Assembly: GCA_965153355.1 (NCBI GenBank)
Contig: OZ231126.1
Coordinates: forward strand, 34,658,001 to 34,722,000
DNA length: 64,000 nt
Reading direction: 5' to 3'
Source: Flaccisagitta enflata
Taxonomy: Eukaryota
Shown: positions 6,155 through 9,340 of the stretch, piece by piece
How the letters are laid out: each line of letters begins with the position of its first letter
How positions within the stretch are numbered: the first letter of the stretch is position 1
Program-made: the position numbers and the translations under genes
The notes under the pieces: generated by a model
What the model was told of the DNA's origin: nothing
Databases searched by the model: none
The model's input: the letters and a program-made list of their open reading frames with translations, nothing else

Positions 6155-9100
6155 TTACGATTCACGGATTTCGCCCTCTGTTCCAATTTTGCAAATGGCC
6201 TTATCGAAGGAAATCAATAGCATCTGCATTGACTCTGGTAAATTCTCAGCAAAATTTAGTTGCAGATCCAAATTTATGCTCTGAACAAGCGTCACGGTCC
6301 CATTCGAGTCTTCGGGAAAAAGTTGTCTAGGCACGATAGCCGTCTCTATCGGAAATAGAAATAGCTCACTGTGATAGCGAACCCTAGATATGCCATTTTC
6401 TGCATGTGGCTTAAAATAGCGTAGGACGGTTCTGTAGAAATGGTCCACCTGGGGCGAGTCGATACTTTCCAAATTCATGCCCCTACACCACTCATTCAAA
6501 TGCGACGGGATCCCATTTATGTAGATCTGCAAGTCCTGAAGTCCCATGTGCTTGAAAATATGTCGGGCGCGTCCCGATGCCCCACTGTGTCGCTCATCAG
6601 TCACGAAACACATCAGAATTAACTCAGGACACCTCGTGAACGTCGAGGCATTGGTGAAATGGAAGATACGTTGATCGCGTTGAAGAGAGTATTCCTATGC
6701 ATTCGAGTAATTTACACATTCAATTTCCATAACATCAGCAATTAATGTATGCAATAAGCAATAATCCATGTTTAGCTCTGGGTCGTGTATGTGTTTGTGT
6801 GTGTGCTTGTGTGCTTTGTGTCTATATATCATTTTCTCACTGAGCAATTCATTTTTTGACTAAAGCACCAATCCCTCTTTACTACCTGAACTCGTTCCAC
6901 ATCCAAAATTCTCGTCAATCCGTCACTTTGGTTTATCATCTCGTAAAATTGATTTCTTATATTTGCCTTTTCAATATAAAAGGAAGAAAAAAAAACATAA
7001 ATAACACATATCATAACGTTTGCACATCAACTGTGTCCCATATCTCATTTGACCATCAATATTGCATAGGCACCACTATATACACACTAAAGGCTACTAT
7101 ACATGCTTAATAGGCACTTTATAGGCACTTTATCGACAATTTATAGGCACTTACTTCAAGATGAATATAATTTACATCCAACCAGATTTCTTGGACTTCG
7201 AAATGGTATTCATTCTGGTTATCCGGCGACTTCAAAATGATGTTCTTATCTGGAACCGTCTTCAGGACAACCTCTACAATCTTCTTTTGCGGATACAAAC
7301 AAGGGAGGTTCCTACAAGAACAATCATCCTATTAACACTGCGTCAGAAACGCGCATCGACATATTAACACAGGTATTGAATGTGAAGTACTGCCATTACC
7401 AAAACGGATGCAGAAGATGAAGTGGTACACACAATTCTTGAGTTTCTTTTGACGCTGCACGCATCATCTTTGAACGCTCGTACAGCCCTATTTATTTAGA
7501 ATTAAATACTTATCTATTACTTCACCGCTAAATCCTCTCTCTCCCTCTCTCTCTCTCTCTCTCTCTCTCTCTCTCTCTCTCTCTCTCTCTCTCTCTCTCT
7601 CTCTCTCTCTCTCTCTCTCTCTCTCTCTCTCTCTCTCTCTCTCTCTCTCTTCTGCTTCCATTTTCCTCCCCATTATCTTCTCTGTCTTGTTTTTTGTGTT
7701 CCACGATAGTGGAACACTAGATATTCAGAGTTTCTCCGTCCGTTTGTTCGTCCGTCCGTTCGTCCGTCCGTCCGTGTGTCACACAACCCAGTTTTTTCCG
7801 AATGTGTGGATAAATTGTTGCGCAAGCCACACAGCCCAGTATTTTCCGAATGTGTGTCACACAGCCTAGTTTTCTTCATAGTGTGTCACACAGCATAGTT
7901 TTCTTCGTATGTGTGTCACACAGCTTAATTTTCTCCATATTGTGTCACACAACCCAGTTTTCTCCAAATGTGTACACATAGCCCAATTTTCTCCATATGT
8001 GTGTGTCACGCAGCCCAGTTTTCTTCTCCACTGTGTCACACAACCCAGTTTCCTCCGAATGTGTGTCATACAGTCTAGTTTTCCAAATATGTATCACAAC
8101 CCAGTTTTCTAATCAGGCACGCTTTCCTTACAAAAACATGGATTGTCGAGCTCTATGTCATTTTCATCCGAATAAGGTGCTTCGTCCATCCTGTAACCTG
8201 TAATGGCAAATAAACATCAATTATGTAACCACATTAATGCCACTATACATACAACAACAACACTTGTCCACTTTACTCACCCAACGAATAGAAATAAGTA
8301 GTTCTGTAGTTTTCATCGTAGTTCAACATCAATTTTACAAAAGTTGAATACGAATTCAAAGGGAAGAGTTTCAAAAATTCATGACCTGCAATGAGAAAGG
8401 TAAACACAACGCTATAGCAATACACCAAAGACTAATCTCGAGCAGCTGCAATTCAAAAACAATGAATTTTTCTATTACCTCCGATCAATACTCGCACACT
8501 TTTGAAAAGCATGACCCCCAGAAATTGCTGACAGCTTATCTGATAAAATTAAAACAGACAAGACTGGTTACATGACAACACAAATTGCCCAACATAACAT
8601 TACACATTCACTCACTCGCTCGCTCATTTGCACTCTCACTCACCCACTCGCTCACTCACTCGCTTACCCACTCACTCACACGCTCACTCACTCACTCATT
8701 CCCTCACTCACTCGCTCAATTCCATCTCTACAACCACAACTTACCTGTTCTTTTTCGGCAAAATCCTCTCCATTGTTCTTCTTCACTCTGTATCGTACAC
8801 GAACGAAACTATTTCTGCCCCAAAGTTCCATGGGAATGCAGGGCTGAATGCTAAAACTGTAGCGATTTGCATCAGTAATGCTTTGCCCCGGCAAGACGGT
8901 GAGCCTGGCCTGTCCAGTCACCCCTATGAGGGTGCTAGGTAAATCCAGGGGTGTATAATGTTGAGTGGCATTTGATTTTATTCCCCCCCCCCTGCATTTT
9001 ATTTTCTTCCCCGCGACGCGTCGCGTCGCGTTACAAAATCATTGGTTTTTTTAACCCTCAAACCTATAAAACAGTATATTTTAGGTTTTAATAGTGTTAA

Positions 9101-9340
9101 ATTGTGTTGTGGTAATTACATTTTACCTTTTGGTACTGCCAAAAGTGTTAAATCTTCAAAACTTTCCTTTTTTCTTTTTTTCAAGCTTTTGATTTTCTTC
9201 CCCATCTCCAAACCATTTGATTTTATTCCCCCCCCCCCACCAGGGGGGGGGAATACTCAACATTATACATGCCTGGGTAAATCACTTATAATAGTACAAT
9301 TCGGTATGTCCAATTTCGACCCTTCTACCAACAGTTCCAT
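6155..9340 (-). CDS. MCP: Major capsid protein (double jelly-roll), 8 exons; exon 1 interrupted by a MITE
   Basis: Exons 9340-8745 (minus MITE 8946-9275 and one 8-bp TSD), 8539-8479, 8385-8281, 8197-8132, 7487-7400, 7311-7155, 6966-6886, 6694-6155. All introns are GT..AG with matching phases, giving 1356 nt = 451 aa. Collinear with Maverick MCP motifs (..LFKSVRVLIGG..YSTFVKLMLNY..CPELILMCFV..IFKHMGLQDLQIYING..LDLQLNFAENLP). Confidence 0.88.
7535..7650. repeat. (CT)n microsatellite in MCP intron 4
   Basis: Directly visible. Confidence 0.95.
7770..8112. repeat. ~38-bp minisatellite (GTGTCACACAACCCAGTTTTCTCC..) in MCP intron 4
   Basis: About 9 degenerate tandem units. Confidence 0.85.
8946..9275. 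mobile_element. hAT-type MITE inserted in MCP exon 1
   Basis: TIRs CAGGGGTGTATAATGTTGAGT / ACTCAACATTATACATGCCTG; 8-bp TSD GGTAAATC at 8938-8945 and 9276-9283. Relatives at 21812 and 42088. Confidence 0.93.

Follow-up and report, generated by a model that had tools for sequence, protein, structure and literature searches.

A major capsid gene of a Maverick-like element in the Flaccisagitta enflata genome is probably split by at least six spliceosomal-type introns

In a 64-kb stretch of the Flaccisagitta enflata genome (contig OZ231126.1; all 64,000 nucleotides [nt] of it are called the window here), positions 6155 to 9340 of the minus strand appear to hold a gene for the major capsid protein. 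It would belong to an endogenous DNA element of Maverick/Polinton-like (adintovirus-like) type, integrated in the nuclear genome of this marine eukaryote. The reading that we consider likely is that of an endogenous and now damaged Maverick-like copy, in which the capsid gene, and probably the ATPase gene, carries spliceosomal-type introns, at least six of them precise. The class of the element is inferred.

An earlier note, made from the sequence alone, had described seven GT-AG intervals that divide this gene into eight exons. A script was used to search the minus strand for each donor hexamer that it named, at the length that it gave and with an AG end, and exactly one place was found for each of the seven. 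Positions, lengths, donors, and phases were as described, and all seven intervals begin with GT and end with AG (Table 1). From the ATG at 9340 to the stop codon at 6157-6155, the coding pieces sum to 1356 nt, or 451 codons plus the stop; the phases of the seven junctions are 0, 1, 1, 1, 2, 0, and 0, and there is no stop within the 451 codons. The stop-free product of 451 amino acids (aa), which the note had obtained by removing a miniature inverted-repeat transposable element (MITE) from exon 1, was thereby recovered. The 152-aa fragment that it had seen in the open reading frame (ORF) track is exon 8 read from its first ATG, and the same frame from stop to stop is 179 aa long. A search of window positions 1-20000 for self-splicing group I or group II introns gave no Rfam match at the gathering score.

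The junctions were compared with uninterrupted homologs. An exhaustive HMMER search found 27 relatives of exon 8, all of which are unnamed ORF calls from metagenomes; P0024 is a full-length, uninterrupted relative of 513 aa, and the N-terminal pattern encoded by exon 1, M-E...S-K-L, is also that of P0024. Each exon was translated in its own phase, with an X placed at every junction and at the MITE break. The X-joined product was collinear with P0024 (residues 21-164 on 21-165 and residues 171-451 on 226-508), and about 25 other relatives aligned with it in a single block spanning junctions 5, 6, and 7. Where a junction splits a codon, the X sits on one homolog residue, and at phase-0 junctions the added X sits on a one-residue gap, so that junctions 1, 2, 3, 5, 6, and 7 show neither a lost nor a surplus residue. 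The exon 7/8 boundary is crossed without a break, precisely where predicted, by the sequence "...VNRVQEYSL..." of a close relative, P0035. All six of these junctions agree to the residue with the uninterrupted homologs.

Single exons were scored against a profile built from distant relatives only. Exons 5, 6, 7, and 8 scored 17.4, 37.6, 11.4, and 135.2 bits, respectively, at collinear positions, and all 39 stop-free segments of the intervals and the MITE, used as controls, scored 0.5 bits or less. Exons 1 to 4 jointly scored 26.7 bits against P0024, compared with a best score of 5.3 bits for shuffles (n = 3000, of which 1931 returned a score); singly they did no better than the controls, save exon 3 (1.7 bits). 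The precision of the junctions is consistent with splicing of these intervals in vivo.

The MITE that the earlier note had placed in exon 1 proved to be real. Its terminal inverted repeats, at 8945-8966 and 9255-9276, are 22 nt long and 91% complementary, and two copies of the 8-bp target duplication GGTAAATC lie 338 nt apart, at 8938-8945 and 9276-9283. Further copies with 71-73% identity are present in the flanking DNA of the window at 21812-22127 and 42088-42390. Since these diverged copies lie outside the element, the insertion is that of a host MITE, which entered the capsid gene after integration. From the length of its target-site duplication, we take the MITE to be hAT-like.

Structure modeling places the protein in a double-jelly-roll capsid family whose nearest named relatives are of the adintovirus/Maverick type. 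In an AlphaFold model of P0024, made with 32 aligned sequences, residues ~320-510 had a predicted local distance difference test (pLDDT) score of 80-95. When this model was compared with 48,161 PDB representatives, the top 10 matches were nine double-jelly-roll capsid proteins and the orf virus scaffold protein. These 10 included proteins of PBCV-1, EhV-201, Sputnik, faustovirus, mavirus, and SGIV, as well as adenovirus hexon and ASFV p72, with Z scores of 7.4-10.7, and all of them align through their own second jelly roll with the C-terminal one of P0024 (residues ~317-513, which correspond to exon 8 of the window). A Foldseek search of BFVD returned 55 matches with an E value of 0.001 or less, many of them giant-virus and virophage capsid proteins; the best included a bracovirus-borne protein (E = 2.5e-8), an adintovirus capsid protein (E = 1.3e-7), and adomavirus LO7. 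A language-model search with exon 8 gave DJR-like_dom clusters at 0.97.

The capsid C-terminal ORF occurs in six lineages, with exon 8 identities of 98, 78, 69, 67, 61, and 58% and, in the same order, representative ORFs of 152, 184, 224, 198, 234, and 194 aa. The lengths range from 107 to 235 aa in five clusters (28 members) and from 135 to 184 aa in the 13 members of the sixth. A word-based search, a tool that itself rates such evidence as weak, found no relative of 315 aa or more. In the P0080 cluster, the sublineage of the window, seven of eight variants are a 152-aa ORF and one is a 132-aa ORF, on 54 contigs in all; 152 aa is the length that the window gives with intron 7 in place. The ORF pairs P0001/P0035, P0081/P0094, P0083/P0100, and P0084/P0106 are contiguous through the exon 7/8 point. 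In P0081/P0094 the homology reaches upstream as far as the last part of exon 6 and gives out ahead of a shared "KY," and in P0082/P0097/P0099 it begins about six codons downstream of the intron 7 site of the window. Intron 7 looks specific to the sublineage of the window, and in the other lineages the interruptions seem to lie at other points. For the adjoining polymerase-like gene, all 12 of the relatives found, at 48-99% identity, consist of one ORF each, 1292-1310 aa long. Intact polymerase ORFs together with short capsid ORFs indirectly favor an intron-bearing lineage over decay or domestication. For both the capsid piece P0081 and the polymerase P0072, the longest contig on record measures 6773 nt.

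Several observations weigh against this reading, beginning with those at the fourth interval. In relatives, the linker between the jelly rolls consists of C-x-C-x-x-C-x-C followed by S-G-C-G, R-T-x-x-E-I, and F-N-x-G. In an alignment slice, the last ~34 residues of this linker are present in all 11 relatives that span 'intron 4,' and its Cys-rich start is present in 8 of the 11, 6 of which are near-identical members of the P0024 cluster. The window model jumps from "...ELDNPCF" to "LYERS..." and so omits about 52 residues. No linker remnant was found in 7300-8400 by a six-frame profile search with filters off, which gave exon 5 only. The frame of exon 4 continues beyond the donor as C-F-C-K-E, like the Cys-rich start of the linker, and the donor of 'intron 4' may therefore be a cryptic GT in former coding sequence. 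The acceptor ahead of exon 5 splits a codon that is a conserved Gly in relatives, as would be expected of a phase-1 intron at that site. Possibly an exon flanked by two phase-1 introns was lost or overwritten here, and the frame was kept by accident. Because the 451-aa product lacks the conserved linker, 'intron 4' is not to be counted as demonstrated. The collinearity that the earlier note had claimed for the product held against the relatives, except that about 52 conserved residues are skipped here.

Three kinds of repeat fill the interval itself: ~40-nt units in tandem, ~10 of them; an (ACGG)-like run; and a (CT)n stretch at 7545-7650. The tandem units are GAAAACTGGGTTGTGTGACACA-like and lie at window positions 7650-8110; they are followed by the (ACGG)-like run and then by more than 100 nt of (CT)n. 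Other (CT)n-rich matches lie at 43621-43677, 44287-44386, 51377-51617, 53552-53609, and 60984-61070. Six distant relatives with 20-30% identity (P0004, P0005, P0016, P0007, P0017, and P0018) are ORF-called capsid proteins of 309-350 aa, and most of these ORFs start within the Cys-rich linker, near the end of exon 4 in the window. There may be an old interruption at the linker across the wider family.

Other points on the same side concern expression, the relatives, and the assignment of the element. In four RNA runs compared with 6100-7544, the exons were uncovered and no exon joints were found; the only match was to the (TG)-rich run at 6783-6821 in intron 7, by RNA contigs of 31-173 nt. The four runs share 5-7% of the words of the stretch, small shares that are due to simple repeats. 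The donors GTAGTA and GTAATA fit the usual consensus weakly. The intron content of the relatives is inferred from the output of ORF callers rather than from DNA, and 152-aa members also occur in other clusters, so that decay, contig ends, or the choice of start codon could explain the short ORFs. Scans of JGI metagenomes and IMG/VR with exon 8 or the polymerase alignment, and of IMG/VR with P0024 and P0005, gave no DNA of relatives that tblastn confirmed. The N-terminal half of the P0024 model had a pLDDT of ~25, because near-identical sequences alone cover that half, and the N-terminal jelly roll does not resolve in the model. The double jelly roll that the earlier note expected from structure prediction was thus obtained for the C-terminal half, in P0024, but not for the N-terminal half, and with that half poorly modeled, 'double' comes from length and homology only. 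Neither in the ORFs of the window nor in 20 family members did Pfam detect a domain of a capsid protein, polymerase, integrase, or ATPase; no match was significant for any capsid exon, element ORF, or family member, the rest being at chance level or below the cut-off. The capsid profile likewise had no match among PDB sequences. Since Pfam recognizes none of the genes of the element, "Maverick" is a likeness and not proven membership. A fold search with the polymerase, for which the model was weak (pLDDT, 52), gave no significant match, the best E value being 0.21, for an archaeal PolB, with the phi29 polymerase at rank 33.

Could the intervals instead be junk insertions or decay in a dead pseudogene, with GT..AG ends and a kept frame that reflect coincidence or the choice of boundaries? 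The copy is damaged, with a MITE in exon 1, a lost linker and a repeat-filled 'intron 4,' and a frameshift in the polymerase, and the exons within 6100-7544 lack RNA cover in the four runs. The available part of a study of vertebrate Mavericks also judges the 'introns' proposed by GeneWise to be insertions in degraded copies (PMC8097293). However, six of the seven junctions are residue-exact against uninterrupted homologs, in three different phases, and there is no stop in 451 codons. The intervals, at 83-205 nt, have the size of introns, an identical last ORF of 152 aa is found in seven of eight sublineage variants on 54 contigs, and the conservation of the exons across lineages equals that of the intact polymerase. 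We regard decay as quite unlikely on these grounds. Introns derived from transposons, which would be introner- or MITE-like with splice signals, would have been gained after endogenization, and would spread only by intragenomic copying, are an unlikely source as well. Interruption points that seem to differ among sister lineages, a lineage-specific intron 7, and a MITE insertion in the capsid gene itself all fit such an origin, but introns 1, 2, 3, 5, 6, and 7 have no other copy in the 64-kb window, which is a far too small sample. Within the window, the only matches of intron 1 are internal to it and those of intron 4 are to simple repeats, and no target-site duplications or terminal inverted repeats were seen by eye at the intron ends.

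The earlier note had left two explanations standing, an intron-rich Maverick lineage that ORF searches would miss and a capsid gene being domesticated by the host. For the latter, the introns would have been acquired as part of a host gene, with the surrounding element genes as relics, and the contrast between many introns in the capsid gene and none in the adjoining polymerase would be accounted for. The MITE interrupts the gene, however, and a conserved segment is missing. The gene also lies in register and on the same strand as the polymerase-, ATPase-, and integrase-like ORFs, and the adjoining polymerase is 99% identical to an intact 1306-aa ORF elsewhere, indicating that the element is young. 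The numerous sequence variants, spread over many contigs, fit a multicopy element rather than a single-copy host gene. Domestication is highly improbable and finds no support in a copy with a MITE in exon 1, a lost linker, and a frameshifted polymerase alongside. The intron-rich lineage is the best fit, given the six exact junctions out of seven, the short capsid ORFs, and the intact polymerase ORFs. Pfam finds none of the hallmark domains, and 'intron 4' is not clean.

An intron-bearing, Maverick-like lineage would work as follows. The capsid gene would carry short U2-type GT-AG introns, at least six of them in the window, and capsid protein would be made only after nuclear transcription and splicing by the host. 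The element would copy itself as DNA, so that the introns would travel along with it. Sister lineages apparently interrupted at different points suggest gain or loss of introns in the history of the lineage. The window's own copy has probably lost its function: a MITE lies in exon 1, the linker has been replaced by repeats, and the polymerase is frameshifted. A more tentative possibility is that a still-active Maverick-like lineage makes its capsid only by host splicing of a multi-intron gene and has intron turnover so fast that sister lineages at 58-98% identity are interrupted at different codons.

Table 1. Predicted features of the capsid locus and neighboring genes (window positions)
Feature	Position	Strand	Description
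Polymerase-like gene	1489-5405	-	Intronless; just downstream of the capsid gene; one frameshift at ~3846-3852
Major capsid protein gene	6155-9340	-	8 exons, 7 GT..AG intervals; MITE inside exon 1
Exon 1	8745-9340	-	ATG at 9340; coding 9340-9276 + 8937-8745, broken by the MITE and one copy of the target duplication
MITE	8946-9275	.	330 bp; flanked by 8-bp duplication GGTAAATC (8938-8945, 9276-9283)
Intron 1	8540-8744	-	205 nt, GTAAGT..CAG, phase 0; junction exact versus P0024
Exon 2	8479-8539	-	61 nt
Intron 2	8386-8478	-	93 nt, GTAATA..CAG, phase 1
Exon 3	8281-8385	-	105 nt
Intron 3	8198-8280	-	83 nt, GTGAGT..CAG, phase 1
Exon 4	8132-8197	-	66 nt
'Intron 4'	7488-8131	-	644 nt, GTAAGG..TAG, phase 1; not a clean intron
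Exon 5	7400-7487	-	88 nt; 17.4 bits versus family profile
Intron 5	7312-7399	-	88 nt, GTAATG..TAG, phase 2
Exon 6	7155-7311	-	157 nt; 37.6 bits versus family profile
Intron 6	6967-7154	-	188 nt, GTAAGT..AAG, phase 0
Exon 7	6886-6966	-	81 nt; 11.4 bits versus family profile
Intron 7	6695-6885	-	191 nt, GTAGTA..TAG, phase 0; holds a (TG)-rich run; apparently not in four related lineages
Exon 8	6155-6694	-	540 nt including stop; predicted C-terminal jelly roll; 135.2 bits versus family profile
Putative packaging ATPase gene	17692-18786	-	Exon 1, 18786-18696; GT..AG interval, 18695-18354; exon 2, 18353-17692

The ORFs of more than 150 aa in 1486-18387 are mostly on the minus strand, and the GC skew is strongly negative over 1-18000. 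The polymerase-like gene is read in two frames, of 528 aa and 788 aa, separated by one frameshift relative to P0068, the 99%-identical metagenome ORF of 1306 aa; the frameshift could be a real mutation or an assembly error. By language-model features, the protein is near 18 named clusters of the protein-primed PolB family PF03175 at 0.9 or more, which are eukaryotic, with a best value of 0.92 (205 of 256 features). Polymerase-motif-like strings were read by eye only, and a polymerase profile had no match among PDB sequences. Within the 788-aa ORF (1489-3852, minus strand), residues ~190-510 are the only confident part of the polymerase model (pLDDT, 75-90) and contain an E-x-E-G-C-x-x-H-G string. 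The nonsignificant fold matches of this part include PD-(D/E)XK nucleases (SfsA, HincII, Hjc, and EcoRV), and the polymerase-like protein may have an inserted nuclease domain. A C2H2 zinc-finger-like string lies at residues 368-390 of P0068 (window ~4236-4304, minus strand), with an E value of 0.57 in Pfam and of ~1 against PDB zinc fingers. Some of the language-model neighbor clusters of the polymerase pair PF03175 with zf-C2H2.

The putative ATPase gene probably carries an intron as well. Its long ORF (17692-18387) has no start codon and contains a Walker B-like string, seen by eye. If a 91-nt exon upstream is added and a 342-nt GT..AG interval is taken out, a full Walker A motif results with the frame preserved, which is an argument from motif logic only; this completion makes the ATPase probably a second intron-bearing core gene. 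The interval has a weak donor, GTCGTT, and a ~110-nt tandem repeat inside it. The ATPase-like ORF has no match in Pfam or among PDB sequences. The integrase-like ORF at 15149-16327 has a possible D..D..E spacing by eye, with no Pfam match at an E value of 10 or less and no PDB sequence match. No candidate for an adenain-like protease or a penton was found among the element ORFs by Pfam.

An inverted-repeat scan of 1-24000 found no terminal inverted repeats around the gene set. A 206-nt inverted pair with 99% identity lies at 806-1011 and 11697-11902, with a second partial copy (86-89%) at 1117-1272. Between its two arms lie the polymerase and capsid genes and two small ORFs, and the half with the ATPase- and integrase-like ORFs is outside it; an inner repeat, a rearrangement, and the true ends of a shorter element are all candidates for what it is. 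Directly to the left of the element, window positions 1-460 hold a satellite of ~24-nt units (CTAAATCTACCC-like) followed by (CTTT)n. A 387-aa ORF at 11919-13082 (minus strand) is of D/N/G/V-rich low complexity in its C-terminal two-thirds and has no family match. An ORF at 30038-30514 (minus strand) has a subthreshold match to the SKICH domain (E = 1.3e-4; 22.9 bits, with a cut-off of 23.4), which hints weakly at an animal host.

The element resembles Maverick/Polinton elements and adintoviruses in the C-terminal jelly-roll fold of its capsid protein, for which an adintovirus capsid protein and a bracovirus-borne protein were among the best BFVD matches. It also resembles Mavericks in its long neighboring gene, which is nearest to eukaryotic protein-primed PolB clusters (0.92 by language-model features), in its ~18 kb of same-strand genes with ATPase-like and integrase-like motifs, and in its integration in a eukaryotic genome beside host repeats. 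It differs in that its capsid gene has at least six predicted introns and its ATPase gene probably one, whereas the core genes of vertebrate and nematode Mavericks have been described as intronless, and in that it has no detected Pfam hallmark domain and no terminal inverted repeats that bracket the gene set. Adenovirus shares with it a double-jelly-roll capsid protein (hexon; Z = 10.0). Adenovirus is a nuclear DNA virus, and its capsid expression depends on host splicing, which joins leaders to an uninterrupted hexon ORF. In the window, by contrast, the capsid coding sequence itself is split eight ways.

The closest parallel for intron-like intervals in integrated, capsid-keeping elements is provided by introner-bearing maverick-polinton-like proviruses of dinoflagellates (Gozashti et al. 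2025, PMC12166617). The intervals of those proviruses belong to repeated introner families found via genome-wide consensus sequences, whereas those described here are unique within the window, and six of them lie in one gene with the exact frame kept. The window, with ~40% GC and canonical GT-AG intervals, differs from dinoflagellates in these traits too. In the available portions of earlier work, intact vertebrate Mavericks have "intronless ORFs" (PMC8097293), and nematode Mavericks have core genes called intronless, with introns in cargo genes only (bioRxiv 10.1101/2022.07.12.499685). A large protist survey, as far as its accessible text goes, used prokaryotic gene callers, since endogenous viruses "do not contain introns," with a filter of 200-900 aa (PMC10120064), and another survey states that it left introns out of account (bioRxiv 10.1101/2025.04.19.649669). 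A term search of the accessible text of Krupovic et al. 2014 found introns unmentioned (PMC4028283). A multi-intron capsid gene in a Maverick/Polinton element was not reported in the literature searched, which is not proof of absence.

The longest capsid ORF in the window is 152-179 aa, and the lineage would therefore be dropped by filters of 200-900 aa. The finding breaks an assumption on which ORF-based surveys of proviruses work. Splicing of the introns, if it occurs, ties capsid production to the nucleus and to the host spliceosome. If a still-active lineage exists, it would be a natural system for watching the gain of spliceosomal introns inside a DNA virus, and a whole clade would be invisible to ORF-based provirus surveys. 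The locus may record intron turnover in a DNA element, and if intron positions differ between sister lineages, the family would supply dated cases in which a mobile DNA element gained or lost introns.

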